This document shows, in pieces, positions 3,494 to 55,918 of a DNA stretch of 64,000 bases. The notes under the pieces were generated by a model that did not search any database, was not told the origin of the DNA, and saw nothing but the letters and a program-made list of their open reading frames with translations. Origin of the DNA: Escherichia coli (GTDB taxonomy: Bacteria > Pseudomonadota > Gammaproteobacteria > Enterobacterales > Enterobacteriaceae); assembly GCF_050920415.1 (NCBI RefSeq), contig NZ_CP169309.1, one strand, 5' to 3'. Position 1 is the first letter of the stretch; each line of letters starts with the position of its first letter. A program made the position numbers and the translations under genes.

Positions 3494-3494
3494 A

Positions 3495-16645: not shown

Positions 16646-16755
16646 TAACGTGATGGGAAGCGCCTCGCTTCCCGTGTATGATTGAACCCGCATGGCTCCC
16701 GAAATATTGAGGGGCGCGTTGAGGGTTCATTTTTATATTCAGAAAGAGAATAAAC

Positions 16756-32200: not shown

Positions 32201-33000
32201 CGGCCTAAATTGTTGAAAGAGCTGCCGTCGAGCGCTGGAGTCAGTCAGGTGACGGATAACAATGAAGTGTGGCCGTTGTTTAACGCAACGCAAAGGGTAG
32301 ACGGCAACCTCAGCCCATGTGAATCGGCGCGTCGCCCATTGAGCGATGATTTATCATCGCTCTATGCGCGTTATCCGGGGAACACGCTGACGACTCAAAT
32401 CGGCTGGTCTACGAAGTATGCATGGTGGGCACTGGATAACAGGCAGGGGAATGCCCTGGTTGTCAGTCTGAGTAATGGTTTGGAGTCGTCGACGGCGAGT
32501 ACGGCGTATCAGGGATGTCTGGTCAATCCTCGCGCGACCGTCTCCAGCGTCACGCTGACATCGACCGCGATGGATGCCATTACTCAGGCGGCGAAGGTAA
32601 AAAAAGGTGAAGCCATGCCCATTGTCGTTACCGTAAAAGACAGCACCGGGAAGCCGGCACCGAATGTCGCGTTCACCTTAAAACGTGGTGATGCCGTGCC
32701 GCGTAACAGCGGGGCGACGTTGTATGGTAATGTTGCGGCGATGGATGATATGACGGTACAACCTGCCAGCGGGACGGTGGTAACGCTGGCTGACAGTGGG
32801 AATACGATTGATGGTGTGACAGGGGCGGACGGTACGGCAAGTTTTACTGTTCGTCAGGATAATACGCCAGGATATAAAACACCGTTGACGGTGACGCTGA
32901 CGGATAACGCCACAATAACGGCGACGCTGGACACAATTTTCACCGTGCCGACCAGCCCGAATGTCGCCACGGCGTATTTCTGGGGGCATATGGCGGATAC
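26210..33000 (+). repeat. Array of about nine diverged ~850-bp coding tandem modules within ratA
   Basis: Conserved DNA/protein core ttYaccgtggtcaccagcccggat...tggggccatatg recurs near 26210, 27040, 27830, 28680, 29540, 30390, 31250, 32100, 32940. Confidence 0.7.
26523..26552 (+). repeat. Three tandem copies of a 10-bp unit (gggcaccacc, gggcaccacc, gggcagcacc) at the ratA frameshift
   Basis: Read directly; removing one copy restores a continuous frame reading ...[19 protein letters not shown]... Confidence 0.8.
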
Positions 33001-33419
33001 CGCCACAGTAAGTGGCAAGACGTTACATCGCCCGCTATTGAAATCAGAGTTGCCGTCAGGGGCTACAGCGGCAGTGGCGCCAACGGTGAATAATGAAATC
33101 TGGGCGCTGGCACATGTGATCGATGCTCAAAAATGGGATGTTGCAAAGCAGTGCGGTGACTTTAGTAAAGCACCGAGCTATACCGATTTACAGTCATTAC
33201 ATAGCAGCTTTAGCGCGCTGGGATGGCCATCATCGATAAGCTTCCCCTATTTCTCTACCGATCGGGCCGGTTCGTTCTATTGTGGCATGGATGAAGGGGC
33301 GGGGACACAAAACTGCGGTATTCAGGCATCCAGTACTGCGGGGTTTGCAACCTGCTTCCAGTAGTCTTAACGGGTCTGTAAATGGGGGCCAAGATGTAAA
33401 TAAGATTCGCAATGCGTCA

Positions 33420-34948: not shown

Positions 34949-36415
34949 ATGCTACGTATCGCTAAAGAAGCTCTGACGTTTGACGACGTTCTCCTCGTTC
35001 CTGCACATTCTACCGTTCTGCCGAATACCGCTGACCTCAGCACCCAGCTGACGAAAACTATTCGTCTGAATATCCCTATGCTCTCCGCAGCAATGGATAC
35101 CGTAACGGAAGCGCGCCTGGCTATCGCCCTGGCTCAGGAAGGCGGTATAGGCTTTATCCACAAAAACATGTCTATCGAGCGCCAGGCTGAAGAAGTTCGC
35201 CGTGTGAAAAAACACGAATCTGGCGTGGTAACCGATCCGCAGACCGTACTGCCAACCACGACGCTGCGCGAAGTGAAAGAGCTGACCGAGCGTAACGGTT
35301 TTGCAGGCTATCCGGTTGTGACCGAAGAAAACGAACTGGTCGGCATCATCACCGGTCGTGACGTGCGTTTTGTTACCGACCTGAACCAGCCGGTCAGCGT
35401 TTACATGACGCCGAAAGAGCGTCTGGTAACCGTGCGTGAAGGCGAAGCCCGTGAAGTTGTGCTGGCAAAAATGCACGAAAAACGCGTTGAAAAAGCGCTG
35501 GTGGTTGATGATGAATTCCACCTGATCGGCATGATCACTGTGAAGGACTTCCAGAAAGCGGAGCGTAAACCGAACGCCTGTAAAGACGAACAAGGCCGTC
35601 TGCGTGTAGGTGCAGCGGTTGGTGCAGGTGCGGGTAACGAAGAGCGTGTTGATGCGCTGGTTGCCGCAGGCGTTGACGTTCTGCTGATCGACTCCTCTCA
35701 CGGTCACTCTGAAGGTGTTCTGCAGCGTATCCGTGAAACTCGCGCTAAATATCCTGACCTGCAAATCATCGGCGGCAACGTGGCAACAGCAGCAGGTGCC
35801 CGCGCGCTGGCAGAAGCCGGTTGCAGTGCCGTTAAAGTGGGTATCGGCCCAGGTTCTATTTGTACTACCCGCATTGTTACTGGCGTCGGTGTACCGCAGA
35901 TCACTGCCGTTGCTGACGCAGTAGAAGCCCTGGAAGGCACCGGGATTCCGGTTATCGCTGACGGTGGTATTCGTTTCTCTGGCGATATCGCGAAAGCTAT
36001 CGCTGCTGGTGCAAGCGCGGTGATGGTAGGCTCCATGCTGGCAGGTACGGAAGAATCCCCAGGTGAAATCGAACTCTACCAGGGCCGTTCTTACAAGTCT
36101 TACCGTGGGATGGGCTCTCTGGGCGCGATGTCCAAAGGTTCTTCTGACCGTTACTTCCAGAGCGACAACGCTGCCGACAAACTGGTGCCGGAAGGTATCG
36201 AAGGTCGCGTAGCCTATAAAGGTCGCCTGAAAGAGATCATTCACCAGCAGATGGGCGGCCTGCGCTCCTGTATGGGCCTGACCGGCTGTGGTACTATCGA
36301 CGAACTGCGTACTAAAGCGGAGTTTGTACGTATCAGCGGTGCGGGCATTCAGGAAAGCCACGTTCACGACGTGACCATTACTAAAGAGTCCCCGAACTAC
36401 CGTCTGGGCTCCTGA
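34949..36415 (+). CDS. guaB: IMP dehydrogenase
   Basis: ORF 34880-36415; ATG at 34949 ([21 protein letters not shown]) gives 488 aa; CBS domains and catalytic [11 protein letters not shown] loop. Confidence 0.95.
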
Positions 36416-36483
36416 TTCTCTTCGCCCGACTTCATGTCGGGCGATTTATATTATCTGTTTCACTTGCCTCGGAATAAGCGTCA

Positions 36484-38061
36484 ATGACGGAAAACATTCA
36501 TAAGCATCGCATCCTCATTCTGGACTTCGGTTCTCAGTACACCCAACTGGTTGCGCGCCGCGTGCGTGAACTGGGTGTTTACTGCGAACTGTGGGCGTGG
36601 GATGTGACAGAAGCACAAATTCGTGACTTCAATCCAAGCGGCATTATTCTTTCCGGCGGCCCGGAAAGCACCACCGAAGAAAACAGCCCGCGTGCGCCAC
36701 AGTATGTCTTTGAAGCAGGCGTACCGGTATTCGGCGTTTGCTATGGTATGCAGACCATGGCAATGCAGTTGGGCGGTCATGTTGAAGCCTCTAACGAACG
36801 TGAATTTGGCTATGCGCAGGTTGAAGTCGTAAACGACAGCGCACTGGTTCGCGGTATCGAAGATGCGCTGACCGCAGACGGTAAACCACTTCTCGATGTC
36901 TGGATGAGCCACGGCGATAAAGTTACCGCTATCCCGTCCGACTTCATCACCGTAGCCAGCACCGAAAGCTGCCCGTTCGCCATCATGGCTAACGAAGAAA
37001 AACGCTTCTACGGCGTACAGTTCCACCCGGAAGTAACTCACACTCGCCAGGGTATGCGCATGCTGGAGCGTTTTGTGCGTGATATCTGCCAGTGTGAAGC
37101 CCTGTGGACGCCAGCGAAAATTATCGACGATGCCGTAGCCCGTATCCGCGAGCAGGTAGGCGACGATAAAGTGATCCTCGGCCTCTCTGGTGGCGTGGAT
37201 TCCTCCGTAACCGCAATGCTGCTGCACCGCGCAATCGGCAAAAACCTGACTTGCGTATTCGTCGACAACGGCCTGCTGCGTCTTAACGAAGCAGAGCAGG
37301 TTCTGGATATGTTTGGCGATCACTTCGGTCTGAACATTGTTCACGTTCCGGCAGAAGATCGCTTCTTGTCAGCGCTGGCTGGCGAAAACGATCCTGAAGC
37401 AAAACGTAAAATCATCGGTCGCGTTTTCGTCGAAGTATTCGATGAAGAAGCGCTGAAACTGGAAGATGTGAAGTGGCTGGCGCAGGGTACTATCTACCCT
37501 GATGTTATCGAATCTGCCGCGTCTGCAACCGGTAAAGCACACGTCATCAAATCTCACCACAACGTGGGCGGCCTGCCGAAAGAGATGAAGATGGGCCTGG
37601 TTGAACCGCTGAAAGAGCTGTTCAAAGACGAAGTGCGTAAGATTGGTCTGGAGCTGGGCCTGCCGTACGACATGCTCTACCGTCACCCGTTCCCGGGACC
37701 AGGCCTCGGCGTTCGTGTTCTGGGTGAAGTGAAGAAAGAGTACTGTGATCTGCTGCGCCGTGCTGACGCCATCTTTATTGAAGAACTGCGTAAAGCGGAC
37801 CTGTACGACAAAGTCAGCCAGGCGTTCACCGTCTTCCTGCCAGTACGTTCCGTTGGTGTAATGGGCGATGGCCGTAAGTATGACTGGGTTGTCTCTCTGC
37901 GTGCTGTCGAAACTATCGACTTTATGACCGCACACTGGGCGCATCTGCCGTACGATTTCCTCGGTCGCGTTTCCAACCGCATTATCAATGAAGTGAACGG
38001 TATTTCCCGCGTGGTGTATGACATCAGCGGCAAGCCGCCGGCGACTATTGAGTGGGAATGA
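36484..38061 (+). CDS. guaA: GMP synthase (glutamine-hydrolysing)
   Basis: 525 aa; GATase domain (GVCYGMQ) and PP-loop SGGVDSS. Confidence 0.95.
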
Positions 38062-38109
38062 TTAACAGCTAACTCATAGCAAATCATTCCTATTCAGATG
38101 TCAACTCAA

Positions 38110-38140
38110 CCCTCTGTTTTTGCAGAGGGTTTTTGTTTTT
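38110..38140 (+). terminator. guaA rho-independent terminator (ccctctg-tttttg-cagaggg then T-run)
   Basis: Perfect 7-bp stem followed by tttttgttttt, about 50 bp after the guaA stop. Confidence 0.7.
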
Positions 38141-38196
38141 ATGTATTCATTTCTATTCACTCTACACCATATTTTTCGGCGGTACAGGTGACGGTA

Positions 38197-38211
38197 TTAC
38201 CTTAAAGGTAT
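38197..38211. promoter_or_regulatory. Palindromic operator-like site TTACCTTAAAGGTAT upstream of integrase
   Basis: Member of the TTACCT-N3-AGGTAA family, 1 mismatch. Confidence 0.45.
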
Positions 38212-38253
38212 ACTCTCATACCGTCATGAAAATGGTTTCTATACGGGTGAATT

Positions 38254-39504
38254 GTGCTTACCGATACAAAATTAAAAAACCTCAAGCCGCAGGACAAACT
38301 GTACAAGGTCTCCGATCGTGACGGGCTGTATGTAGCTGTGCTTACGTCAGGCACGGTCTCGTTTCGCTATGACTACCGTATCAACGGTCGCCGCGAAACA
38401 CTGGTAATCGGGCAGTATGGGCGTGACGGTATCAGCCTGGCAGAAGCGCGAGAAGAACTGATTGCTGCAAAGAAGCTGCTTAAAGCAGGCCAGTCGCCGG
38501 CTGCGGCTAAACGTGACGGTATCAAAAAGATTCGTGGTGCCGAGACGTTTGCGGTACATACCGACAGTTATATGAAACACGTCATCCTGGCTGACAGTAC
38601 CCGCGCAATGAAGCAGGCGGTGATCGACCGTGACATACTTCCGGTTCTTGGCAACAAAATGATGGCTGAAATTACCACATCGATGGTTCGTGATTTGTGT
38701 GACCGGATTGTCGAACGCGGTGGTCGGGCAACAGCAGTACAGGCCAGGGAGATCATCAGCAGCGTATACCGTCACGCCAATGACCGTGGTCATGGTTTGT
38801 TTAATCCTGCGGCTGACATTAAACCTTCGTCTATCGCCATATTTAAACCACGAGAGCGAACACTGACACCAGAAGAAATTGGCCTGTTCTTCCGCACGCT
38901 GGATGCCATTGGTGCTATGGGCACTATGAAAATGGCTTTAAAGCTGGTGCTTATCACTATGGTTCGTAAAGGCGAATTCACCAATGCAACGTGGGATGAA
39001 ATAGATTTTAAAAAATGGACATGGACAATTCCTTCAGACCGCATGAAGGGAAGCCGGGCGCACGTTATTTACCTGCCTAAACAGGCACAGGATATATTGG
39101 TTGGGTTGCAGATGTGCGCTGGTGGAAGTGAATATCTGGTTCCTGGTCGTTACAATTTCCGGAAGCCATTATCTAATGCCGCGCTGAACTCTCTGATCGA
39201 CAGAACGGTGAAAATAATAAATGAAGATGGTGAGCATATTCAGGGCTTCACCGTACACGATATGCGCCGTACAGCCAGTACGTTGTTGCATGAGGCTGGT
39301 TATCCTTCAGACTGGATTGAAAAGGCTCTGGCACATGAGCAGAAAGGTGTGCGCGCCGTATATAACAAAGCGGAATACGCCAGACAGCGCGCCTACATGT
39401 TGCAGCAGTGGGCCGATATGATTGATTCCTGGATTAACGGGGAGCATACGGATCTGATTCCGTTCTCCCCGTCGAAGTTTGAGAAGTGGATGGCGGGGGA
39501 ATAA
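38254..39504 (+). CDS. int: Tyrosine integrase (P4-type, N-terminal arm-binding domain)
   Basis: 416 aa, GTG start; N-terminal DUF4102-like region and C-terminal catalytic region (HDMRRTASTLL...ALAHE...Y). Confidence 0.85.
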   Translation: MLTDTKLKNLKPQDKLYKVSDRDGLYVAVLTSGTVSFRYDYRINGRRETLVIGQYGRDGISLAEAREELIAAKKLLKAGQSPAAAKRDGIKKIRGAETFAVHTDSYMKHVILADSTRAMKQAVIDRDILPVLGNKMMAEITTSMVRDLCDRIVERGGRATAVQAREIISSVYRHANDRGHGLFNPAADIKPSSIAIFKPRERTLTPEEIGLFFRTLDAIGAMGTMKMALKLVLITMVRKGEFTNATWDEIDFKKWTWTIPSDRMKGSRAHVIYLPKQAQDILVGLQMCAGGSEYLVPGRYNFRKPLSNAALNSLIDRTVKIINEDGEHIQGFTVHDMRRTASTLLHEAGYPSDWIEKALAHEQKGVRAVYNKAEYARQRAYMLQQWADMIDSWINGEHTDLIPFSPSKFEKWMAGE

Positions 39505-39507
39505 CGT

Positions 39508-39702
39508 TTAATAGTTCTGCTGATTTTCTTCCATCTCTGCTTCTGCTGCCAGTGATTCAATTTTGTTTTCGAATATTGCTGACAGTGTTGCAAATTCAGC
39601 ATCAGTGACGGCGGGAATTGGAACAAACCTGATCCCGCTGTGTGCAAGCATGTTTGCAGTTTCAAGGCATTTTCTTAAATCTGCTGGTGATGCCCTGTTC
39701 AT
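39508..39702 (-). CDS. Small hypothetical protein (64 aa), start overlaps the methyltransferase stop (ATGA)
   Basis: Sub-frame of ORF 39508-39822 beginning MNRASPADLRK; ATGA overlap with upstream gene suggests translational coupling. Confidence 0.3.
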   Translation of the reverse strand: MNRASPADLRKCLETANMLAHSGIRFVPIPAVTDAEFATLSAIFENKIESLAAEAEMEENQQNY

Positions 39703-40349
39703 GCAGCACGCTCCCGCCCCTGGTTGTCTGTTGGTGACAGCGGAGAATTGCTGAATGCATTTGTTAATCCGCCAATATCCAACGCGTATCCAGGGTGTAG
39801 TTGCACTGCCGGGTCTTCGCACTGATTACCCCAAACATCGAAGCCATGAGACGACTGGCGGGCGAATAGTTCAATGCGAGAAACATCGCCTAACAATTGC
39901 ACAAGTTTTTCACGAACGACATCTGGTTTTCTTGAGTGCTCAAGCCGCGGTGCGGTAAATGACTGAACGATCCCTGCATTAATGCGCGGAGGTAGTTTTC
40001 CCTTTACCGCAAACAGGCAATCTTCACTATTGGCGCGAGTCATGTGTCCCATACCCATAACAAGTTTATCTGGTTGTCGACTACCACATTTTATCCACGT
40101 GAAGCCCTTCATCGTCATCAGACGGAATCCCCAGGCTTCAACAACTTTTAGTGCTTCGAGTGGTTGTGTTGGCACCCACCACATGGCCAACAGACAGTTT
40201 TCATCGGCCAAATCCCACACAGGAAGGCGGCAGATATCCAGCACACTCATAACCGGATATTTAAAACCGGCACCGCGATTACCATCTGCGGCTTTGTCCC
40301 GGTATACCCAGGGTGGATCTGCATAGATTAGTGTGTATTTCTTAGTCAT
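39699..40349 (-). CDS. MT-A70 family DNA N6-adenine methyltransferase (orphan, no cognate nuclease seen)
   Basis: ORF 39699-40361; ATG at 40349 (MTKKYTLIYADPPW); DPPW catalytic motif. Confidence 0.7.
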   Translation of the reverse strand: MTKKYTLIYADPPWVYRDKAADGNRGAGFKYPVMSVLDICRLPVWDLADENCLLAMWWVPTQPLEALKVVEAWGFRLMTMKGFTWIKCGSRQPDKLVMGMGHMTRANSEDCLFAVKGKLPPRINAGIVQSFTAPRLEHSRKPDVVREKLVQLLGDVSRIELFARQSSHGFDVWGNQCEDPAVQLHPGYALDIGGLTNAFSNSPLSPTDNQGRERAA

Positions 40350-40641
40350 AAACCACCCCACAACATCCTATGCCGCTATAGTCGCCACGGCGAAGGCCGT
40401 TACCTTTTGTGATACATTGGTCCCTGCGAACCGCGATCCTTGCACGTTCAACATCACCAGAAGCAACATCCATACACTGAAGCCAAAGGTGGGCGGCAAT
40501 GCGGAACTGCCCTTTTTTCTCTCTTTCAATCGCGCGTTTTTCGATCTCTATCGCCGCAGGAGTAACGGCGACAATCTTTGACGGACTGCGCATTGAAACC
40601 TTGTTCATGTGATATTTTTCAAGTCGGCTTAACTTTCTCAC
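40342..40641 (-). CDS. PerC-family transcriptional regulator-like protein
   Basis: 99 aa; pattern ...IEREKKGQFRIAAHLWLQCMD...ERARIAVRRDQC resembles the PerC/Pch signature as I recall it. Confidence 0.45.
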   Translation of the reverse strand: MRKLSRLEKYHMNKVSMRSPSKIVAVTPAAIEIEKRAIEREKKGQFRIAAHLWLQCMDVASGDVERARIAVRRDQCITKGNGLRRGDYSGIGCCGVVYD

Positions 40642-44397: not shown

Positions 44398-44982
44398 TTA
44401 TTGTTTGTTTTTTTCGTTCTGGTTGATGACAAATTCAATGTAACTTTCGATCTTTGCCTTCTCTGTTTCAGGTAACAATGCGTAGCGCGAGCGGTCATAG
44501 TTGATAGTTGCAGGGTCATGCGGATGAATCAGTAGTTCATATCCGTGACGCCCGAATGCAGATGCAACATTCTCCAGGGTGGAAATGGAAACGCTGACCT
44601 CATTGTTTAACAGGCGGCTGATTGTCACCTGGGCGACGCCGGATGCGCGGTGAAGTTTTCCCTGTGTTGAAAGGTCGCGGCTTTCGCTCATCCAGCGTTC
44701 CAGGTTGTGAGCCGCCAGCTGACCAATGTCGCTTGGGCCGACAGGCTGAAAACCTTCCTGAGAAAGCGAGCGATCGATATCAAGCCAGTTACGGGGTTTA
44801 TTGGCGGCAGCTTCAATTTTTCGCGCAACCTGGTCGCCGATAACCTTCTTGCCAAGAGCCCAGCGGTTTACCAGATTTGCCTGAGTTCCAAGTTTTTCTG
44901 CCATCCGCGTCTGAACACCATTGAATTCACGGTCGATCAAGTCGTTGAGATTTTGCCTGCGGACGTCCTGGATACTTTTCAT
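44398..44982 (-). CDS. Phage CI-like repressor (HTH, Phage_CI_repr-type)
   Basis: 194 aa; N-terminal HTH (QTRMAEKLGTQANLVNRWALGKK) and second HTH-like segment; divergent from a Cro-like gene across an operator-rich spacer. Confidence 0.55.
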   Translation of the reverse strand: MKSIQDVRRQNLNDLIDREFNGVQTRMAEKLGTQANLVNRWALGKKVIGDQVARKIEAAANKPRNWLDIDRSLSQEGFQPVGPSDIGQLAAHNLERWMSESRDLSTQGKLHRASGVAQVTISRLLNNEVSVSISTLENVASAFGRHGYELLIHPHDPATINYDRSRYALLPETEKAKIESYIEFVINQNEKNKQ

Positions 44983-45136: not shown

Positions 45137-45367
45137 ATGAGCGATAACGGACATTTCGATTTCAAAAAGCACTGGCTTGCACTTACTCCGGATGAGCGTG
45201 AAGCCTTCGCACAGGAAGCCGGAACGACGAGTCACTATATCCAGACTCACTTAACAGGTAAGCGAAAAATGCCAGGTAAAGTATTGATGAATGGGCTTTT
45301 TAAAGCCTGTAAAACAAGACAATGGCTGCGCTCAAAAGCAGAACTGGCATACTTCTTCTACTCATGA
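45137..45367 (+). CDS. Cro-like / YdaS-type HTH regulator
   Basis: 76 aa; HTH segment FAQEAGTTSHYIQTHLTGKRKMPGKVL; divergent from the CI-like gene. Confidence 0.5.
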   Translation: MSDNGHFDFKKHWLALTPDEREAFAQEAGTTSHYIQTHLTGKRKMPGKVLMNGLFKACKTRQWLRSKAELAYFFYS

Positions 45368-45733: not shown

Positions 45734-46549
45734 ATGAGCAGACATGCAACAGATTGGGCCTGGGAGACAGATCCAGGCAGCTCATCATTAAAGCTCATAC
45801 TGCTCTCGATGGCTGACAGAGCCGATGAATATAACCTCTGCTACCCCAGCATAGAACGCCTCGTTAAAGACACTTGCCTGAATAAAAAAACCGTGCAGGC
45901 CGGGCTTATATCGCTCATGAAAATGGGGCTTATTTCAGATACCGGAGAGAGAAAGGGAGCGACGAAAAGAGTGCGGGTTTTCTCTCTTAATATAACCAAA
46001 AACGGGAACATTAAAGGCAACCGGGAAGGGAGTAATGAACCCGAAAACGGAAATGTTACCGAAAACGGGAATATACCCAAAAACGGGATGTTGAATGATC
46101 CCAAAAACGGGATGTTGAATGATCCCAAAAACGGGATCCAGAACCAGTCATATAACCAGTCATTTAACCAAGAGAGGGGGAGCAGGACAAAAACCGGGGA
46201 TTCTGTGCCTCATGACCCCGGCGCAAACAACGCCGTGATGAATAACTTTGTTCCTCCTGGTGGGCCAGGGCAATTAGGCAAATTTGTCATGCATGAACAA
46301 TGGCAACCATCAGATGACTTTCTTCGGAAAAGCTCATTGCAGGGAATCTACCTGGACAGTCTGCCAACGGCACAGGAACTTGCAGAGTTCAGAATTTACT
46401 GGATGGCTGAGGGTAAGGCATACCATCAGGCACAGTGGGAGCAGAAGCTGGCAAGGCGGCTGCAGATTAGCAGACAGAAGCAATCAACATTACCTGATAA
46501 CAACGTTCCGCACTGGAACAGCCCTGAAGCGTGGGAGGATTTCTTGTGA
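45734..46549 (+). CDS. Replication initiator, lambda O-like (N-terminal winged-helix domain, internal repeat linker, DnaT-like C-terminus)
   Basis: 271 aa; immediately upstream of and overlapping a clear lambda P homolog; coding sequence contains iteron-like repeats. Confidence 0.65.
   Translation: MSRHATDWAWETDPGSSSLKLILLSMADRADEYNLCYPSIERLVKDTCLNKKTVQAGLISLMKMGLISDTGERKGATKRVRVFSLNITKNGNIKGNREGSNEPENGNVTENGNIPKNGMLNDPKNGMLNDPKNGIQNQSYNQSFNQERGSRTKTGDSVPHDPGANNAVMNNFVPPGGPGQLGKFVMHEQWQPSDDFLRKSSLQGIYLDSLPTAQELAEFRIYWMAEGKAYHQAQWEQKLARRLQISRQKQSTLPDNNVPHWNSPEAWEDFL
45998..46136. repeat. Iteron-like array: six copies of (c/g)aaaacggga including a perfect 24-bp tandem duplication (46078-46101 = 46102-46125); candidate origin inside the O-like gene
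   Basis: Copies at 45998, 46043, 46061, 46078, 46102, 46126, followed by aaccagtcat x2 at 46142-46165. Confidence 0.55.
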
Positions 46550-47331
46550 ACAACGTTTTTACCGCGATACAAAACCGTGACGGAGAAGCCCTTTCTCGCA
46601 TGTCAGGTTATGAGCATCAATACGTCAACAATGACAATGTGGTGAACATGTCAGCAGAGAGGCTTGTTGATGCCCTTTTCAAACAGCTGAAACAACTGTT
46701 TCCGGCGGCAGTAGTAACCAACCTGAAGACGCCAGAGCAGGAAGTTGCTGCAAAACAGCAGTGGATTGCTGCGTTTGCCGAAGGTGGGATCCGAACCCGT
46801 GAACAGGTTTCTGCTGGTATGCGCCACGCTCGCGCCAGTGAGTCTCCGTTCTGGCCGTCGCCAGGGCAATTCATCAAGTGGTGTAAAGACAGCAAGATGG
46901 TTCTTGGCGTCACCATTGACGATGTGATGGCGGAGTTTCACCGGTACAGCAAGGAAAAAAGTTTATATCCTGGTGGTCCCGAAAGATTCCCGTGGCGACA
47001 TCCGGTTATGTACTGGGTCGTATGTGATACCCGCCGTGCAATGTATCAGCGCCAGCTTAGCGAGATTGAGGTTGAGAAACACGCGCGCAGGCTGCTCGAT
47101 GATTGGGCGAAAAAGGTGGCTTCCGGACAGCAGATACCCGATCCGGTGATCAGCATACAGGCAAAGCCAGAGCCCATGAGTACGCCTCCGGACACAGGGA
47201 GAGACGTTTACCATCCACCAGGGCGAAGTTTCGGGTGTATGCCTAACGCCGCCACCCTGGGGGGAATAACACCGGCGCAGTGGCTAATGGAGGAATACAG
47301 GCGGGGAAAGGCGGCAGGATTTATCAAGTAA
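46546..47331 (+). CDS. Replication protein P (lambda P-like helicase loader)
   Basis: Matches lambda P core (QWIAAFAEGGIRTREQVSAGMRHARASESPFWPSPGQFIKWCK vs lambda QWVLAFRENGITTMEQVNAGMRVARRQNRPFLPSPGQFVAWCR); GTG at 46546 with RBS gggagga, overlapping the O-like stop. Confidence 0.8.
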   Translation: MNNVFTAIQNRDGEALSRMSGYEHQYVNNDNVVNMSAERLVDALFKQLKQLFPAAVVTNLKTPEQEVAAKQQWIAAFAEGGIRTREQVSAGMRHARASESPFWPSPGQFIKWCKDSKMVLGVTIDDVMAEFHRYSKEKSLYPGGPERFPWRHPVMYWVVCDTRRAMYQRQLSEIEVEKHARRLLDDWAKKVASGQQIPDPVISIQAKPEPMSTPPDTGRDVYHPPGRSFGCMPNAATLGGITPAQWLMEEYRRGKAAGFIK

Positions 47332-47368
47332 TACCAGCGCGATAGCGCATTTTTTTACGTCTCAATAA

Positions 47369-47445
47369 TTACCTATAAGGTAACAAAATATTCTAAACTC
47401 TATTGATTTAGTGTCTTATGTGGTTTTTAATTACCTCAGAGGTAA
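47369..47445. promoter_or_regulatory. Two perfect operator-like palindromes TTACCTATAAGGTAA (47369-47383) and TTACCTCAGAGGTAA (47431-47445) flanking a putative promoter
   Basis: Perfect matches to TTACCT-N3-AGGTAA; the second ends 3 bp before the ATG at 47449. Confidence 0.5.
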
Positions 47446-47448
47446 ATC

Positions 47449-47796
47449 ATGAGAAAACAGATACAGGCTCTTGGTCGACTCAAAACAGGCCAGATGAACA
47501 AAACAGAATCTGCGTATTGCCAGCACCTTGAGCAGCGTAAACGTGCAGGGGAAATCGCCTGGTATCGATTCGAGGGTATCAAGCTGCGGTTAGCTGACAA
47601 CACGTTCTATACGCCCGATTTCGCTGTGATGCTCGCCACCGGCGAGATGGAGCTGCACGAAGTGAAAGGGGGATTCTGGACCGATGACGCCAGAGTGAAA
47701 ACCAAAGTCGCCGCAGATCAGTATCCGTTCCGAATCATCGGGGTAACGGTTAAGCCAAAGAAAGCAGGTGGTGGCTGGAACATCGAAGAGTTCTGA
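47449..47796 (+). CDS. DUF1064-like phage protein (putative nucleic-acid-binding/nuclease-like)
   Basis: 115 aa; motifs GEIAWYRFEG...YTPDF...HEVKGG recalled for DUF1064. Confidence 0.5.
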   Translation: MRKQIQALGRLKTGQMNKTESAYCQHLEQRKRAGEIAWYRFEGIKLRLADNTFYTPDFAVMLATGEMELHEVKGGFWTDDARVKTKVAADQYPFRIIGVTVKPKKAGGGWNIEEF

Positions 47797-47857
47797 ATCG
47801 ACGATCTTTTTAGTTATCAATGTAATCAATAAGTTATGTGGATAAGCGAGGGTAAAG

Positions 47858-48697
47858 ATGGAAAGTAATATCAAAGGGTTAGTTTCCGCCGGGCATGAGA
47901 TGGCTTCGGAACTGAAAGCAGAATGTGGTGCCGTTGATATGCGCAGTGTGGCAAAGCTGATCAGCGATTTGGCAACGCAACTGGAAGTGCAACTGGTGCG
48001 TGCTAATGCGCAGGACGAAGACAACCAGAGAGCCATTGAGTCAATTAAACAGGCTGATTCGGCTGTTAAGTTGGCACACGAGAAGTTTTCGGCGCTGGCG
48101 GCGAAACGTGCAATTCCAGCAATGGAACGCCTGTTAATGTTGCCAGCTGATGATGATTTGTTAAGTGAACAGGAACTTAAAGATTACGGTGTGGATATTG
48201 ATGCGCTCAACGCCTTCAAATTTCTGGCCGGACCAGAAACCGTGCTGGCACTACTGGATGAACGGGAAAGAAACCAGCAATACATCAAACGCCGTGACCA
48301 GGAGAACGAGGATATTGCGCTAACGGTAGGGAAGCTGAGAGTTGAGCTTGAGGAAGCAAAATCAAAACTCAACGAGCAGCGTGAGTATTACGAAGGTGTT
48401 ATCTCGGATGGAAGTAAGCGCATAGCAGAACTGGAAGCGCGGGAAATAAAACCAGCCAAAGGTGAAGTTCTGGTCGTTGTATCTGGTTTTACTGGTTGCG
48501 GAAAAAGCGCCATTGCCGGGGAAATAGAAATCGCGATGAAGGCTATTGGTGTACCGGTTAAGTGGACTAATGGCGATGCAGAAAAGCGCATGACTGGCGC
48601 TGACTGGCTGACTGCGATTGAGATGTACAAACCAACTGTGCGCATCGTGGAAGTTAATGTGCCCCGCGCCGCTGGCATTCGCATCAAAGGAAAGTGA
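47858..48697 (+). CDS. Hypothetical phage protein (279 aa), coiled-coil N-terminus plus globular C-terminus; possibly Ea22-like
   Basis: ORF with good coding character; family assignment not secure. Confidence 0.5.
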   Translation: MESNIKGLVSAGHEMASELKAECGAVDMRSVAKLISDLATQLEVQLVRANAQDEDNQRAIESIKQADSAVKLAHEKFSALAAKRAIPAMERLLMLPADDDLLSEQELKDYGVDIDALNAFKFLAGPETVLALLDERERNQQYIKRRDQENEDIALTVGKLRVELEEAKSKLNEQREYYEGVISDGSKRIAELEAREIKPAKGEVLVVVSGFTGCGKSAIAGEIEIAMKAIGVPVKWTNGDAEKRMTGADWLTAIEMYKPTVRIVEVNVPRAAGIRIKGK

Positions 48698-48698
48698 T

Positions 48699-48920
48699 AT
48701 GGCTAACTCATTACTTGAAACCTGCAACAACTGGCAGATTCAGAGGGCGGAGATTTTATCTCGCAATCCAGATATGGCAATGACAATCGATAATCTGGAT
48801 ACGCTAATTGAACGTACCGTGCGTTCTGCAATTGATATAGCACGTCGAGTTGACTGGGATTTCAGAGAAGCGGAGCGGCTTGCTAAAGAGCAGGAGAAAG
48901 CAGCGGGTAAAGGAGACTGA
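48699..48920 (+). CDS. Hypothetical phage protein (73 aa)
   Basis: ATG at 48699 directly after the previous stop, within ORF 48618-48920. Confidence 0.4.
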   Translation: MANSLLETCNNWQIQRAEILSRNPDMAMTIDNLDTLIERTVRSAIDIARRVDWDFREAERLAKEQEKAAGKGD

Positions 48921-48921
48921 T

Positions 48922-49119
48922 ATGGATAAAAACACCACTGCTTACTGGAATCTGTCACTTGATACCGAATGCCCAAAATGCGGTCACAATTTCGATCTGC
49001 TTTGTGATGCTGATTTCTGGGAGTTTTCTGGAGCTAAACAGGCATGTGAAGAAATAAAAGGTTACGAAACATGCTGTCCAGAATGTAACCATGAATTTAA
49101 AACAGATTTCGTGTATTGA
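48922..49119 (+). CDS. Small zinc-ribbon protein (65 aa)
   Basis: CPKCGH...CCPECNH motif; ATG at 48922 abutting the previous stop. Confidence 0.4.
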   Translation: MDKNTTAYWNLSLDTECPKCGHNFDLLCDADFWEFSGAKQACEEIKGYETCCPECNHEFKTDFVY

Positions 49120-49129
49120 GGCATAACAA

Positions 49130-49915
49130 ATGACCACTATTACCAGAGAACAGGCACAGAAAATTATTGAAGCAGCCGATGAGGTTATTAGTGCGCTGGC
49201 CGGAACTAACGAGGATGTTCACCCTGGTAGCGATAACATGCTACGCCTGTGGGATGACCTGAATGACCGTTACGCGCCGCCGGAAGTTGTGCGTGAGCTG
49301 GCGCGTATCGTGCTGGCATCGCTGGAAGCAGAACCAGTTGCTTATATTTTCAAACATCCGGCCGGGAAATTATTCTGGGCTTTAACGGATGAAAGCAATA
49401 AAGAGCAAGCGGACGTTATTCCTGTTTATGCTGCCGCGCCTGCGTCGGTTGTGCCGGATGATGCATCAGGGTCGCTTGCTTATGCTTACAAAGAGCTTAC
49501 GCCTGAGATTATGCGCGGTCATATCGCTGTATTCGAGCGATATGGAATAGCCCCAAACGATAGCATTACCACAATTCAGGCACTGCGAATCGCGCTGGAT
49601 GGCATAGAGCGGAGCGACGCCATGCTTCATGGTGCCGAACCCGTAAGCCAAACTTACAAGTTGAACGAGCTATCTGGCAACTATCCGGCAACTCCGGATA
49701 GTTGGATAAGCTGTAGTGAGCGAATGCCGGAAAAGAACAAGAACGTGCTTATTTCGGTGAATTTCGACAGCTCTCTGGTTGAACCGCTAATATGCTCCGC
49801 ACGCTATACCGGAAGCACATTCCGGCGAGGAGAAGCAACGATTAAGCCGGGTAATGGTATTGAGCAGGCAACTCACTGGATGCCGCTACCGGAACCGCCG
49901 CAGGAGGTGAAGTAA
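49130..49915 (+). CDS. Phage protein with C-terminal DUF551-like domain
   Basis: 261 aa; C-terminal WISCSERMPE...ATHWMPLPEPP typical of DUF551. Confidence 0.5.
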   Translation: MTTITREQAQKIIEAADEVISALAGTNEDVHPGSDNMLRLWDDLNDRYAPPEVVRELARIVLASLEAEPVAYIFKHPAGKLFWALTDESNKEQADVIPVYAAAPASVVPDDASGSLAYAYKELTPEIMRGHIAVFERYGIAPNDSITTIQALRIALDGIERSDAMLHGAEPVSQTYKLNELSGNYPATPDSWISCSERMPEKNKNVLISVNFDSSLVEPLICSARYTGSTFRRGEATIKPGNGIEQATHWMPLPEPPQEVK

Positions 49916-50037
49916 TGAACAAGTGCAACGCTCTGCTTTATGCCATGGTGATTGGTTTCGGCCTGGCTGCTGGTATCCGGGTTTATATTGCCTGGGAGTC
50001 ATTAATCAATCTGGCGTGGAGTGCGATTCGTGGCTAA
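49915..50037 (+). CDS. Small hydrophobic protein (40 aa)
   Basis: MNKCNALLYAMVIGFGLAAGIRVYIAWESLINLAWSAIRG; ATG overlaps upstream stop (taATG); not in ORF track. Confidence 0.3.
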   Translation: MNKCNALLYAMVIGFGLAAGIRVYIAWESLINLAWSAIRG

Positions 50038-50368
50038 ATCCCCCGCAGAACGCAAAGCCGCGCAGCGCGCTCGGCAGTCCGCCGCCGGTGAGCGCAAAAT
50101 TGAACTGGTGCTGGATAAGCAGGAGCAGGAAATGCTGGAGCGTAACTGTGCCGCCCGTCGCCCTGGTCGTGCGCCGTATGAAATGAGCGAATACATCGCG
50201 TTACTGATCCGCCAGGATGATGCACGCGTGCGCGGGCGTATAAAATCGATCAGCAGAAAACGTTGCGGTAAGTGCGGCGAGAGAGTTCCAGTTAATTCAT
50301 GCCCGTGTAATGGTGACTCGCAATGCTGGGTGACTAAAGGCTGGCATGAAACGAAATTAATAGTGTGA
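50021..50368 (+). CDS. Hypothetical Cys-rich protein preceding terminase (start uncertain)
   Basis: 115-aa ORF with GTG start; CGKCGERVPVNSCPC motif; alternative ATG starts at 50132 or 50180. Confidence 0.35.
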   Translation: MRFVAKSPAERKAAQRARQSAAGERKIELVLDKQEQEMLERNCAARRPGRAPYEMSEYIALLIRQDDARVRGRIKSISRKRCGKCGERVPVNSCPCNGDSQCWVTKGWHETKLIV

Positions 50369-50486
50369 CATGTCACGAGTAGATTATGCATGATGAATTT
50401 GATGGATTTTGAATACTGCCGCCAACTATGGCGGCTTTATTTTGCATGGTACTATTACCACAACGGTAACTATTACCACGGTGGTT

Positions 50487-51083
50487 ATGATGCCTGCTGA
50501 ACCTAAAACCTATAAACGCAAATCAACGCAATTTAAGCCGCTCACAGCAATGCAGGAGGCTTATTGCCAGTCATACATCAAAACGCCTGAAAACCAGACT
50601 CAGGCAGCGATTAACGCAGGATTCTCCCCAAACACAGCGGCAGTTAAAGCCAGTGTCATGATGCGCGATGAACGCATTCAGAAACGGATTGCCGAGTTGA
50701 TGGAGGAGCGCAACAAACGAATGCGCGTCAGTGCTGATTACGTTCTCATGCGCCTGGTGGAGATCGACCAGATGGACGTGATCGACATCCTCAACGACGA
50801 TGGGAGCCTTAAACCAATCCGTGAGTGGCCGAAAATCTGGCGCACTACGCTTAGTGGCTTTGATCTGTCGTCGACCATCATGAACATGAACGAGGATTCG
50901 ATAGAGACAATCCTCAAAAAAATTAAATGGCCTGACAAGGTGAAGAACCTTGAGCTGATTGGTAAGCATGTTGATGTCAACGCGTTCAAAGAACGTCTGG
51001 ATGTTAATGTGAATGTGACAATTGCTGATCGCATAGCAGCAGCCAGGAAGCGACTCAAAGAACGTCAGGATGGTAATCAGTGA
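50487..51083 (+). CDS. Terminase small subunit
   Basis: ORF 50409-51083; start at MMPAEPK; position directly upstream of and overlapping terminase large subunit. Confidence 0.6.
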   Translation: MMPAEPKTYKRKSTQFKPLTAMQEAYCQSYIKTPENQTQAAINAGFSPNTAAVKASVMMRDERIQKRIAELMEERNKRMRVSADYVLMRLVEIDQMDVIDILNDDGSLKPIREWPKIWRTTLSGFDLSSTIMNMNEDSIETILKKIKWPDKVKNLELIGKHVDVNAFKERLDVNVNVTIADRIAAARKRLKERQDGNQ

Positions 51084-52555
51084 CAGATACAGCGTTATCT
51101 CCTGAAGAGCAGTTGATCGAGGATATTGCAGGGTTCACTCACGATCCGCTTGGCTATGCCCTCTATGCGTTCCCGTGGGGGGAAGAAGGGACTGAACTGG
51201 CACATGCTACCGGCCCACGTCAGTGGCAGGCTGATGCGTTCCGAGAGATACGTGATCACCTGCAGAATCCAGCGACGCGCTATCAGCCGCTTATGCTGGC
51301 ACGCGCTTCTGGTCACGGTATTGGTAAATCCGCATTCATCTCAATGCTGATCAACTGGGGCATGTCCACTTGCGAGGATTGTAAGGTCGTGGTGACCGCC
51401 AACACCGACAACCAGCTACGAACGAAGACCTGGCCGGAAATTATCAAGTGGTCGAACCTTGCTATCACGAAAGACTGGTTTACCTGTACCGCTACCGCGA
51501 TGTACAGCAATGATCCTGGGCACGACAAGCGGTGGCGAGCTGACGCAATCCCCTGGTCTGAGCACAACACTGAGGCATTCGCCGGACTACACAACGAGCG
51601 CAAACGCATCATCGTGGTATTCGATGAAGCGTCGAACATTGCGGATCTGGTGTGGGAAGTTGCTGAGGGTGCGCTTACGGACGAAGACACTGAGATTATC
51701 TGGGTGGCGTTCGGAAACCCTACACGTAACACCGGGCGTTTCCGCGAATGTTTCCGCAAATATAAACACCGCTGGAAAACTGCGCAGATTGACAGCCGGA
51801 CGGTGGAAGGCACTAACAAACAGCAGTTGCAGAAATGGGTTGATGACTACGGGGAAGACAGCGACTTCGTTAAAATCCGTGTGCGCGGCATATTCCCGGA
51901 TGCATCTGAATTGCAGTTTATCCCTACCGGACTTACTGACGAGGCAATGAAACGGGTGGTAACCGCTGCGCAGGTTGCACATGCTCCGGTGATAATCGGC
52001 GTTGACCCGGCATACTCCGGCGTTGATGACGCTGTGATATACCTGCGGCAGGGGCTGCATAGTAAGGTGCTGTGGACCGGCAACAAGACCACTGATGATC
52101 TGATTATGGCGAAGCGTATCGCTGACTTTGAAGACCAGTATCAGGCTGACGCGGTGTTCATCGACTTCGGTTACGGTACCGGGCTGAAGTCAATCGGTGA
52201 CGGTTGGGGGCGCACATGGCAACTTGTTCCGTTCGGTGGCGCGTCTACTGACCCGCAGATGCTCAACAAGCGTGGGGAGATGTTCAACTCATGCAAGACA
52301 TGGCTGAGGCTGGGCGGCATGCTGGATGACCAGGAAACAGCGGACGACCTGTCGGCGGCAGAGTACAAAGTTCGAGTGGACGGTAAAATCGTTATCGAAC
52401 CGAAGGAAGATATCAAGGAGCGGCTTGGGCGTTCGCCGGGTAAAGGCGATGCGCTACTGCTGACGTTTGCGTTCCCTGTGTCTAAGCGTCTGCGAATTCC
52501 CGGGCAGCAGAACCAGCAAGGCAAGGCCATTACAGATTACGATCCCTATGCTTAA
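51080..52555 (+). CDS. Terminase large subunit
   Basis: 491 aa; ATPase domain (Walker A-like ASGHGIGKS, Walker B VVFDEAS) and nuclease domain. Confidence 0.85.
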   Translation: MTDTALSPEEQLIEDIAGFTHDPLGYALYAFPWGEEGTELAHATGPRQWQADAFREIRDHLQNPATRYQPLMLARASGHGIGKSAFISMLINWGMSTCEDCKVVVTANTDNQLRTKTWPEIIKWSNLAITKDWFTCTATAMYSNDPGHDKRWRADAIPWSEHNTEAFAGLHNERKRIIVVFDEASNIADLVWEVAEGALTDEDTEIIWVAFGNPTRNTGRFRECFRKYKHRWKTAQIDSRTVEGTNKQQLQKWVDDYGEDSDFVKIRVRGIFPDASELQFIPTGLTDEAMKRVVTAAQVAHAPVIIGVDPAYSGVDDAVIYLRQGLHSKVLWTGNKTTDDLIMAKRIADFEDQYQADAVFIDFGYGTGLKSIGDGWGRTWQLVPFGGASTDPQMLNKRGEMFNSCKTWLRLGGMLDDQETADDLSAAEYKVRVDGKIVIEPKEDIKERLGRSPGKGDALLLTFAFPVSKRLRIPGQQNQQGKAITDYDPYA

Positions 52556-52645
52556 TCCGTTAGCGGGGATAATGACGGAGATATCCTCTGGTGAGGATAA
52601 AACAAAGCCAGCTCATCGGCTGGCTGTTTGTGACATGTCACGGTG

Positions 52646-53017
52646 TTATTGCTCGCTTAACTTCTGCTTCAGCAAGTAACCTTCAAGCATCCAGATTTTG
52701 TTTACAGCATTCTGCCGGGCAATCTTCCGACCAATTTCCGCATCAAAGTTTTCCGGGCTTGCACAGGCGCTCTCTCCGGTGACGGTGAAGCCATTGCGCA
52801 GCACCAGAACGCAGAACGTCAGCAGAGAAAGTGATTCGTGCGGCTGGTAGTTTACCTCTCCGCCAGTATGTTTCGCTTTTATGGCTACGCCAAAGATACC
52901 ATCTTCTGCTGTGAAATATGCCTCCTGAGCAATAATACTCTCGATATGGTCTGGCGTAACGCGCGGCGCGGCTAAACCTTTAGCCTGAATTTCAGATTCA
53001 ATGTCTTTGTCACTCAT
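52646..53017 (-). CDS. Hypothetical protein on opposite strand within late region (possibly Gp49/Sf6-gp66-like)
   Basis: 123 aa; antisense to surrounding late operon and adjacent to tRNA; moron-like placement. Confidence 0.5.
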   Translation of the reverse strand: MSDKDIESEIQAKGLAAPRVTPDHIESIIAQEAYFTAEDGIFGVAIKAKHTGGEVNYQPHESLSLLTFCVLVLRNGFTVTGESACASPENFDAEIGRKIARQNAVNKIWMLEGYLLKQKLSEQ

Positions 53018-53221
53018 AGTCTAATCTCACCTTAAAAAAATGCCCGGCGAACCGGGCGAACTGGAAGCAATGAGTTATGCCTTCCGTGGCTGTACTGGTT
53101 TACAGCATGAAGCCATCGCAATGGCGTCCTGCTGTAAAAAGGGCGGTGATAGTCCTTCAAGGGAAACCATCACCGCCAAGCCCCTGGAACTTCTGGCATC
53201 ACGGTCCTTAGGCGTGATTCT

Positions 53222-53298
53222 GGCGTGGCATGCAGGATTCGAACCTGCGACCGACCGCTTAGAAGGCGGTTGCTCTGTCCAACTGAGCTAATGCCACA
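53222..53298 (-). tRNA. tRNA-Arg (anticodon UCU), argU-like, prophage-encoded
   Basis: Folded by hand: acceptor GTGGCAT/ATGCCAC, D-arm GCTC..GAGC, anticodon stem ACCGC/GCGGT with loop CTTCTAA, T-arm GCAGG-TTCGAAT-CCTGC, discriminator G, CCA. Confidence 0.8.
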
Positions 53299-53619
53299 AC
53301 GCTGAGAGCACTTAGCCTGTTAAGGCGCCACACTTTGTCGCGGCTCCATAAATGCTCTCATCGTTGCACCCTCGTCTCTTCCGAGGCGTCACACCGAATC
53401 GCCGGGATGGTGAATCCCCGTGCGCGGAATAAAACCGCTCGACTTGCACATTCCGGCTACCTGGTTCGTTTGCCCGAGCAAGGGAGGGTGCCCATTAAAC
53501 GTATCCAGACCGCTATCGGCGCATGTGCCATACGCCGTACTGCTCAAAATAAAATCTCACTCCACCTGTTCAATTTAACGACAAGCCAGTCAGGTTAATA
53601 ACAGGAATGCACTCTCTGC

Positions 53620-55625: not shown

Positions 55626-55918
55626 CAGATTACGAAGACGATCAACTGAAAGAAGAAAACGCCCGTAAGCAACGTGACATGGCACAACGTGAAATTGATG
55701 ACATTCGCTTTGTCATGAGCAGTGAACAGGGGCGTCGCGTTGTCTGGTCTGTGCTGGAGAAAGGCCGGGTGTTTTCCGCTATCTCTCCGATGGATGCTAT
55801 GGCAATGGCATTTAATGAGGGGCAACGCAATCTGGCGCTGGAACTGTTTCAGCGCGTTATGGCGCATTGCCCTGAACAGTATTTGAAGATGGCCAAAGAG
55901 GCCAGTGAACAGGAGTGA
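55622..55918 (+). CDS. Hypothetical head-assembly protein (98 aa)
   Basis: Start overlaps portal stop (ATGA). Confidence 0.45.
   Translation: MTDYEDDQLKEENARKQRDMAQREIDDIRFVMSSEQGRRVVWSVLEKGRVFSAISPMDAMAMAFNEGQRNLALELFQRVMAHCPEQYLKMAKEASEQE

Follow-up and report, generated by a model that had tools for sequence, protein, structure and literature searches.

A predicted ribbon-helix-helix protein and a linked 12-bp palindrome at the conserved end of a variable early operon in an epsilon15-like Escherichia coli prophage

We analyzed a 64,000-nucleotide stretch of Escherichia coli DNA (contig NZ_CP169309.1 of assembly GCF_050920415.1; hereafter the window), in which six plus-strand open reading frames (ORFs), ORF1 to ORF6, occupy positions 47858-50368 of a prophage, between its replication and terminase genes. 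The block, which was compared with 87 related loci, almost certainly comprises the variable interior of an early accessory operon, together with its conserved end, in a uetakevirus (phiV10/epsilon15-like) prophage. Alongside results on gene identities, mosaicism, prophage architecture, a predicted fold, and the statistics and gene linkage of a sequence motif, we infer that the last gene, ORF6, likely encodes a sequence-specific DNA-binding protein that reads the palindrome GTGAC-N2-GTCAC. A further step, that ORF6 modulates transcription across operon boundaries, including the one into the small terminase gene terS, is speculative and should be held as doubtful. The block itself is ordinary, a new combination of known uncharacterized families; its odd position is explained by the type of phage, and its genes form a mosaic of common uncharacterized prophage genes. 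What comes out of the analysis is an inexpensive hypothesis on a conserved protein, for which a fold and a 12-bp target are predicted and sites are mapped in the well-studied phages epsilon15, phiV10, SPC32H and N15.

ORF6 is a conserved protein with a predicted ribbon-helix-helix fold

The operon ends in a conserved gene, ORF6 (50030-50368, plus strand). The frame can be opened at GTG 50021, which gives 115 residues; the start is most likely GTG 50030, which gives 112, since homologues are 112 residues long and begin MAKSPAERK, and a GGAG lies 8 nt upstream of 50030. ORF6 corresponds to PhiV10p55 and epsilon15 gp49 and, more distantly, to N15 gp46, the counterpart in the Pectobacterium myovirus ZF40 being gp22; the family is phrog_536. 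Homologues from Escherichia, Salmonella, Klebsiella, Citrobacter and Raoultella are 79-96% identical, a conservation far above that of the cargo genes upstream. The family is small, with only 155 representative clusters recovered in an exhaustive search, and its members are labeled in databases as 'hypothetical' or, without evidence, as 'transcriptional regulator'. Searches with ORF6 against Pfam (even at E 10), NCBIfam and PDB sequences gave no meaningful match.

An alignment of 58 diverse members showed a basic N-terminus with near-invariant R8 and R13, invariant C79 and C82, a nearly invariant C99, and a fourth cysteine that varies in position; ORF6 therefore has a four-cysteine cluster. 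Structure modeling predicted a ribbon-helix-helix (RHH) dimer, with an added basic helix at the N-terminus and a Cys4 zinc module at the C-terminus. The modeled core has a beta-alpha-alpha fold in which the N-terminal strands of two subunits are paired, as the RHH fold requires, although neither Pfam nor NCBIfam holds a curated RHH sequence family that matches it. The predicted beta-alpha-alpha unit, the intersubunit beta-ribbon and a short palindromic candidate operator are shared with RHH regulators such as Arc, Mnt, CopG, MetJ, TraY, AmrZ and the ParD/TacA antitoxins. ORF6 would differ from these proteins in its additional basic N-terminal helix and C-terminal Cys4 module, and in that its candidate sites are scattered over the phage genome, often at the 3' ends of genes, whereas the sites of RHH regulators cluster at one promoter.

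Two loci with distant homologues carry other genes of interest. In L099 (2506-2760 and 4904-5158) and L100 (5119-5721), the homologues lie in arrays with Pfam matches to the Acb2/Tad1 hairpin and to Tad2-like families, both of them known for anti-defence, and the ORF6 family may therefore often accompany anti-defence cargo. An N15-like element with an ORF6 homologue (L088) contains five GGGACC..GGTCCC inverted repeats, at 65, 336, 2804, 7151 and 8481, which presumably resemble the dispersed SopB centromere sites of N15.

A 12-bp palindrome is linked to ORF6 and its homologues

The 12-bp palindrome GTGACATGTCAC lies at 50365-50376, overlapping the stop codon of ORF6, and is the predicted ORF6 operator. 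A second exact copy, in a minus-strand context, is found at 52630-52641, between the stop codon of a PhiV10p03-like gene and a terminator hairpin (52625-52606); the arrangement is the same at position 2262 of phiV10 and position 2142 of epsilon15. These two exact 12-mers compare with ~0.004 expected in 64 kb. The palindrome is invariant in 26 of the 26 intergenic variants that contain it, while the DNA just 3' of it diverges completely; one further variant (L048) has lost the palindrome region by deletion.

Candidate sites recur in phages that encode an ORF6 homologue. Epsilon15 has sites after gp49 (39612), by the terminator downstream of terL (2142) and at the end of the virion operon (19517); phiV10 has sites at 2262 and 19493, plus a one-mismatch copy after p55. 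Three exact copies are present in ZF40 (5125, 7622 and 14944), one of them 3 nt past the homologue gp22. N15 carries the variant GTGACTGGTCAC or its complement at 39269, 33237 and 28550, the first overlapping the stop codon of gene 46. The Yersinia P2-like phage YenM_56.17 has GTGACGCGTCAC at 8468, overlapping the gp14 stop codon, and Vibrio phage K308 has sites at 33227, 35942 and 21342 plus one N3-spaced copy, with 35942 lying 30 nt upstream of terS. Counts of the motif GTGACNNGTCAC were 2 in the prophage of the window, 2 in phiV10, 3 each in epsilon15, ZF40, N15 and Vibrio K308, and 1 in YenM_56.17, against 0.015-0.04 sites per genome under a first-order Markov model. The corresponding Poisson probabilities range from 1e-6 to 4e-4, except for YenM_56.17 (one site, P 0.015). 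The motif is absent from lambda and from the 38-kb host flank of the window.

The linkage between motif and gene holds in both directions. Seven of eight loci whose homologues are only ~30-46% identical to ORF6 contain the motif, which overlaps the stop codon of the gene in two of them, and GTGAC-N2-GTCAC overlaps or abuts the stop codon of the homologue in ZF40, N15, YenM_56.17, L092 and L100. In the reverse test, in which IMG/VR loci were found by the 14-mer TGTGACATGTCACA alone, 21 of 80 encode a protein of the ORF6 family, and in 12 of these 21 the motif lies within 15 nt of the 3' end of that gene. If most motif-bearing phages carry the gene, a fraction of roughly 21 in 80 would be expected, given about three sites per genome and a fragment length of ~9 kb.

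In the uetakeviruses, every copy of the palindrome is placed between the 3' end of a gene and a rho-independent terminator in the direction of transcription. ORF6 is followed by the palindrome and, 41 nt later, by the terminator; the PhiV10p03-like minus-strand gene is followed by the palindrome and, 4 nt later, by its terminator; and gp18 of epsilon15, or p21 of phiV10, is likewise followed by palindrome and terminator. The gaps between palindrome and terminator are insertion spots, and relatives carry there a 69-residue, a UmuD-like or an 85-residue gene. Adjacency of palindrome and terminator was considered as a general rule and rejected, as it holds in the uetakeviruses and for only 23% of the wider set of sites. 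An RNA element at the palindrome was also rejected, folding having yielded just a 5-bp hairpin and the terminator, with no antiterminator alternative.

Traces of the optional genes are visible in the window. On the plus strand, 50386-50412 holds an eight-codon in-frame remnant (MHDEFDGF and a stop) of the 69-residue gene, a deletion scar. The full gene (MPKIRYDLEDM...YDEFDGL) is encoded by the 303-bp spacer class (L026, L041 and L072) and is present between palindrome and terminator in about a third of the related loci. The Klebsiella phages ST512-KPC3phi13.3 (L006) and ST11-OXA245phi3.2 (L007) have an 85-residue or UmuD-like gene there (~3560-3580), each preceded by an apparent LexA box of the form CTGT-N8-ACAG, TACTGTTTAAATATACAGT; such an insert would amount to an optional gene under SOS control, standing between the early operon and the late ones. 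At 55674-55685 of the window, in coding sequence just past the portal gene, there is a copy of the palindrome with one mismatch, GTGACATGGCAC, which is kept in phiV10 (5306); it may be a weak site or a chance occurrence. The P2-like locus L091 has a near-identical one-mismatch copy 35 bp upstream of an exact copy.

A proposed role at operon boundaries and alternative readings

In the model that we favor, the block is the far end of an early operon that probably starts at an operator-guarded promoter (47368-47446) and runs through a DUF1064 gene to the terminator at 50418-50443. Between two conserved ends, an exchangeable cargo slot contains the Ea22-like gene, a 73-residue orphan, a small Cys4 gene and the DUF551 gene, and the conserved right end consists of ORF5, a 40-residue membrane peptide, followed by ORF6. 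As a regulator, ORF6 would have one candidate site over its own stop codon and another at the minus-strand gene that follows terL; complete relatives have a third candidate site, which closes the virion structural operon. Made after induction, it would alter the amount of transcription that crosses operon boundaries; with the boundary into terS included, the timing of the late genes would be affected. The preliminary description of this DNA had named late-gene control among the functions that the block might hold, which is a reasonable suggestion for ORF6 as a predicted DNA-binding protein. More broadly, phrog_536 might represent an undescribed class of regulator, an RHH-zinc dimer that reads scattered GTGAC-N2-GTCAC sites, mostly where transcription units end and in one case within the stop codon of its own gene, gates operon boundaries and times the late genes of Q-less phages, and that would be common to podo-, myo- and siphoviruses of enterobacteria and Vibrio; taken as one joint claim, this is a tentative idea with the odds against it. 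The literature searched gave no account of late-gene timing in epsilon15-like phages. If ORF6 does act at the palindromes, it would fill this gap and add a regulator family that recurs in unrelated temperate phage types.

Several observations weigh against this proposal. The fused-dimer model of ORF6 is only moderately confident (predicted local distance difference test score, pLDDT, 71). One homologue locus (L102) lacks the motif, and the sole copy in L088 lies ~5 kb from the homologue gene. Sites outside the uetakeviruses vary in placement, with those of ZF40 falling within genes and those of Vibrio K308 lying ~30 nt ahead of gene starts, and for this reason a role at boundaries or in read-through is suggested by the uetakevirus arrangement alone. 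A terminator-like hairpin lies within 60 nt of 23% of the sites, compared with 6% of random positions, and this enrichment may be due in part to the intergenic location of the sites. The fold and palindrome of the ORF6 family were not described in the literature searched, the coverage of which was partial, so that an earlier description is possible.

The palindrome might instead not be the site of ORF6 but a recombination or module boundary, the target of another protein or a small RNA hairpin, and travel with ORF6 through module junctions. All three uetakevirus copies do sit at insertion points of optional genes, the RNA can fold into a 5-bp hairpin, and linkage to the 3' end of a gene is no proof of binding. 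We nevertheless regard this explanation as unlikely, given that podo-, myo-, P2-like and siphovirus genomes, which differ in type and gene order, all retain the half-site GTGAC, that tandem copies or extra half-sites occur near the homologues in L091, L092 and L103, as is typical of operators, and that the predicted RHH fold is typical of proteins reading short palindromes or repeats; the hairpin is short and weak and has no antiterminator alternative. Another reading would make ORF6 a Q-like antiterminator that loads onto RNA polymerase at a late promoter just 3' of its gene and carries it through the 50418 terminator into terS. ORF6 is indeed the last early gene, immediately before the late operon, and has a zinc-binding cysteine cluster; the Q protein of lambda is likewise a zinc protein. 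Like the Q genes of lambda, phage 82 and phage 21, the ORF6 gene encodes a small zinc-cysteine protein, stands shortly before the late genes and is separated from them by a terminator, and promoter-like hexamers at 50365-50394 precede the terminator at 50418. However, ORF6 resembles Q proteins neither in sequence nor in fold, the predicted fold being RHH, and there is no conserved promoter between its gene and the terminator. Promoter-like matches are no commoner than chance would have it (10 found, 11.2 expected from shuffles), and the second hexamer of this one falls in the scar of the deleted 69-residue gene and is missing in divergent relatives. A search after ORF6 for a conserved late promoter with a Q-binding element found none, the spacer differing or holding extra genes in relatives. 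ZF40, N15 and the N15-like L088 encode a separate Q-like protein in addition to the ORF6 homologue, and terS comes with repressor operator-like sites of its own. We rejected the Q-like reading on the chance-level promoter, the scar hexamer and the phages that have both proteins, and consider it very improbable.

An explanation of a different kind places the weight on the cargo: at least one of ORF1 to ORF5 would inhibit immunity or exclude other phages, and ORF6 would merely be a local regulator. Conserved flanks with a hypervariable interior are the signature of a phage accessory region, and a published screen that describes such regions found counter-defence genes to be abundant in them (bioRxiv 10.1101/2023.04.06.535777). 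According to a 2026 preprint, some phages have an anti-OLD protein, a relative of P22 EaE, fused to EaD/Ea22 proteins; ORF6 homologues adjoin Acb2/Tad1-like and Tad2-like genes in the two distant loci mentioned above, and the 40-residue membrane peptide of ORF5 has a common format of exclusion proteins. Against this, PADLOC, a check that the preliminary description had proposed, matched no defence model with the six proteins, and PADLOC-DB v2 gave no family with an E value of 0.1 or less for these ORFs or for the gene on either side of the block; the sole NCBIfam match of the six was that of ORF3 to the YnfU family, below the cut-off. The data examined gave no link of the six proteins to any defence system. 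Experimental data for these families are limited to a pro-lysogenic effect of Ea22 in lambdoid phages, the mechanism of which is not established (PMC7093339), and an oxidative-stress phenotype of the DUF551 protein YfdS (PMC10834534). An anti-defence or exclusion island is thus possible, though improbable. We continue to favor a block of exchangeable cargo that ends in a likely DNA-binding protein.

Repressor operator-like sites and the transcription unit

The preliminary description viewed the prophage as lambdoid and was struck by the missing holin, endolysin and Q genes. The lambdoid frame was wrong: the prophage is a podovirus of the phiV10/epsilon15 type (Uetakevirus) inserted beside guaA. 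Bases 36000-40500 consist of guaB, guaA and then the prophage integrase gene, and are found at ~98.4% identity in hundreds of E. coli genomes; a published Uetakevirus member integrates at the 3' end of guaA (PMC9782041). The best matches around the block are the Uetakevirus phages phiv142-3, phiV10, O157 typing phages 9 and 10, TL-2011b and ZX5, at 93-97% identity but broken into pieces. Holin, endolysin and Q are indeed absent from the window, which is no anomaly, because this phage architecture puts the lysis genes elsewhere and the late operons carry operator-like sites. The holin, endolysin and Rz/Rz1 genes of phiV10 and epsilon15 come behind the tail-fibre gene and immediately ahead of attP and the integrase gene; the corresponding position in this prophage falls past base 64000.

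The epsilon15 record annotates 'repressor' protein_bind sites of the form ATTACC-N5-GGTAAT in the immunity region and just upstream of terS, the portal operon, the tail-fibre gene and the resolvase gene. The window contains eight matches to this pattern, with 0.07 expected. Operator-like sites are located in the immunity region (44263, 44325 and 45037) and, on the plus strand, between the lambda-P-like and DUF1064 genes, where ATTACCTATAAGGTAAC (47368-47384) and ATTACCTCAGAGGTAAA (47430-47446) have an annotated repressor site at the syntenic position of epsilon15 (35906-35922). Two more plus-strand sites, ATTACCACAACGGTAAC at 50454 and ATTACCACGGTGGTTAT at 50472 (region 50454-50488), lie directly upstream of or overlap the terS start and are equivalent to the annotated epsilon15 site at 12-27, and one at 53619 precedes the portal operon. 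It appears that the prophage repressor acts directly on the late operons to repress them, and with operator-like sites at terS and the portal operon a lambda-style Q gene is therefore not expected here.

The region 47368-47446 is likely the repressor-controlled promoter region of the operon to which the block belongs, the promoter itself being putative; a sigma-70-like TTGATT-N17-TTTAAT between the two operator-like sites upstream of the DUF1064 gene is our own reading only. The DUF1064 gene and the block appear to form one transcription unit, which is closed by a rho-independent terminator-like hairpin, GCCGCCAACTATGGCGGC plus TTTATTTT, at 50418-50443 on the plus strand. This terminator is kept in all related loci and is annotated as such in phiV10 and epsilon15. 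The longest terS frame begins at TTG 50409, as in the RefSeq record of phiV10, and the phiv142-3 record has a shorter form. The terS start is most likely ATG 50479, because the terminator and two operator-like sites occupy 50409-50479. The 'direct repeats' ACTATTACCAC upstream of terS were considered as a pac or activator element and rejected, as they are the arms of the ATTACC-N5-GGTAAT operator-like sites.

Gene content and mosaicism of the block

Reading of the sequence confirmed the six ORFs, all on the plus strand, and the tight or overlapping junctions that had been described. The gaps between ORF1 and ORF2 and between ORF2 and ORF3 are single bases (TGAtATG), that between ORF3 and ORF4 is 10 bases, ORF4 and ORF5 share one base (TAATG), and ORF5 overlaps ORF6 by 17 nt if GTG 50021 is used or by 8 nt if GTG 50030 is used. 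Each of the six matches a PHROG family (E from 9e-28 to 9e-97), and they are therefore genes rather than chance ORFs. Rfam gave no match inside the block. The view of the block as accessory cargo, mostly of no known function, is supported, as is the caution that it cannot be called a defined system; the six proteins do not all fall into well-characterized housekeeping families.

ORF1 (47858-48697, 279 residues) is Ead/Ea22-like (PF13935, E 4.1e-29, residues 81-193; phrog_250, E 9e-97). It has a three-part build, with separate PHROG matches for residues 1-104, 82-195 and 186-278: a variable N-terminal part, the central Ead_Ea22 coiled-coil signature (PF13935/IPR025153) and a C-terminal domain of residues ~196-279. 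That the N- and C-terminal parts match different PHROGs fits the published three-part architecture of Ea22 with exchangeable C-terminal domains (PMC10834534). The C-terminal domain (48450-48697) holds a Walker-A-like GFTGCGKS and an hhhhE stretch within ~80 residues, and shares at least 95% identity with its counterpart in many E. coli Ea22-like proteins of 126-163 residues; because all homologues are this similar, no useful alignment could be made. A standard P-loop nucleoside triphosphatase was rejected, ~80 residues being too short, and an SRP54 match in the PDB search was discounted as reflecting the P-loop-like motif alone. No solved structure matched this domain, including the C-terminal domain of lambda Ea22 solved by nuclear magnetic resonance, and PDB sequence searches with ORF1 and ORF4 gave nothing meaningful. 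One source names a protein with a C-terminal domain of this type 'ATP-binding protein'.

The remaining cargo genes are smaller or less familiar. ORF2 (48699-48920) encodes a 73-residue orphan that has no Pfam match even at E 10, phrog_10585 (E 3e-42) being its sole family match. ORF3 (48922-49119, 65 residues; phrog_4173, E 9e-28) contains two CxxC pairs (CPKC...CPEC); the zinc-ribbon label given to it earlier holds at the motif level, but its Pfam zinc-ribbon matches are weak and none is significant. ORF4 (49130-49915, 261 residues; phrog_6847 and phrog_60) is EaA-like, and the earlier DUF551 call was correct, with PF04448 matched over the full length of the model at residues 191-258 (E 2.2e-21). 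Proteins identical to ORF4 are cataloged as 'DUF551 domain-containing protein' among the matches listed, which come from at least 8000 candidates. ORF5 (49915-50037, 40 residues; phrog_5525, E 7e-30) encodes one hydrophobic helix, and its end overlaps the start of ORF6; it is found at 95-100% identity in ~35 of the 87 related loci, always directly upstream of the ORF6 homologue.

ORF1 to ORF4 are members of, or are found alongside, the Ea22 and DUF551 families of lambdoid exo-xis regions, and the Nin-region placement proposed for the block was mistaken. None of the six ORFs matched the Nin families (NinB, NinG, NinH and others) in PHROG or NCBIfam; NinX or ASCH genes occupy the position of the block in some relatives and are absent from this window. 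The coiled coil and three-part build of ORF1 and the DUF551 domain of ORF4 resemble the exo-xis 'ea' genes of lambdoid and Shiga toxin (Stx) phages (Ea22, DUF551; Ead, Eae and EaA in P22). The exo-xis region of Stx phage PA28 contains Ea22-like and DUF551 genes, and the C-terminal half of ORF1 together with ORF4 is ~95% identical in DNA to Stx-phage exo-xis regions. Orientation differs: exo-xis genes form a leftward operon between exo and xis, whereas the genes of the block form a rightward operon after the replication genes. A role in tuning the lysis-lysogeny decision or host takeover is ascribed to genes of the exo-xis type; we know of no member with a known biochemical activity.

The closest known arrangement is the early region of the uetakeviruses (p46-p55 in phiV10, gp43-gp49 in epsilon15), which shares with the block its position between the DUF1064/resolvase gene and terS, its last gene (p55/gp49), the terminator, the repressor-type sites, and the family types Eae/Ead/Ea22 and DUF551. 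The gene set differs, comprising ten genes in phiV10 and seven in epsilon15. Among the related loci, the interval from the DUF1064 gene to ORF6 spans 1.2-4.4 kb and varies in gene content, between flanks that are conserved (DUF1064 on the left; ORF6, terS and terL on the right). ORF3 is present in 5 of the 87 loci and ORF2 in one alone, an IMG/VR contig (L009) that is identical to the block except for one residue of ORF6. ORF1 and ORF4 have only partial matches in these loci, ORF1 being shared over 17-71% of its length. At least 80% of 47400-50500 in one place was found neither in any phage record nor in any of 5,426 complete E. coli genomes.

Prophage layout and flanking DNA

The layout of the prophage was derived from PHROG matches together with the phiV10 map. 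The integrase gene (38254-39504) is followed by leftward early genes on the minus strand (39.7-44.1 kb), which include a methyltransferase and RecE/RecT-like genes, by the minus-strand repressor gene (44398-44982) and by a cro-like gene (45137-45367). DnaT-like and lambda-P-like replication genes occupy 45734-47331. On its left, the variable block is bounded by the DUF1064/Holliday-junction-resolvase-like gene (47449-47796, plus strand; phrog_190, E 1e-43), a conserved flank found at 74-100% identity in almost every related locus that extends that far; the left-flank gene bears the DUF1064 label in phiV10 and E. coli. Beyond the block lie terS and terL (50479-52555), the PhiV10p03-like gene on the minus strand (52646-53017, 123 residues, phrog_322), a minus-strand tRNA-Arg gene with anticodon tct (53221-53297), and the portal and virion genes from 53946 to the end of the window. 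The tRNA-Arg and PhiV10p03-like genes, which stand between terL and the portal operon and are flanked by the palindrome and terminators, look like inserted optional genes.

In the host flank, Rfam identified the small RNA genes ryfA (3492-3796, minus strand) and sroE (16645-16736, plus strand). The flank also contains three very large ORFs of 1653, 770 and 2342 residues (5044-12318 and 26336-33364); the first two match yfhM and pbpC in size, and the 2342-residue ORF may be adhesin-like.

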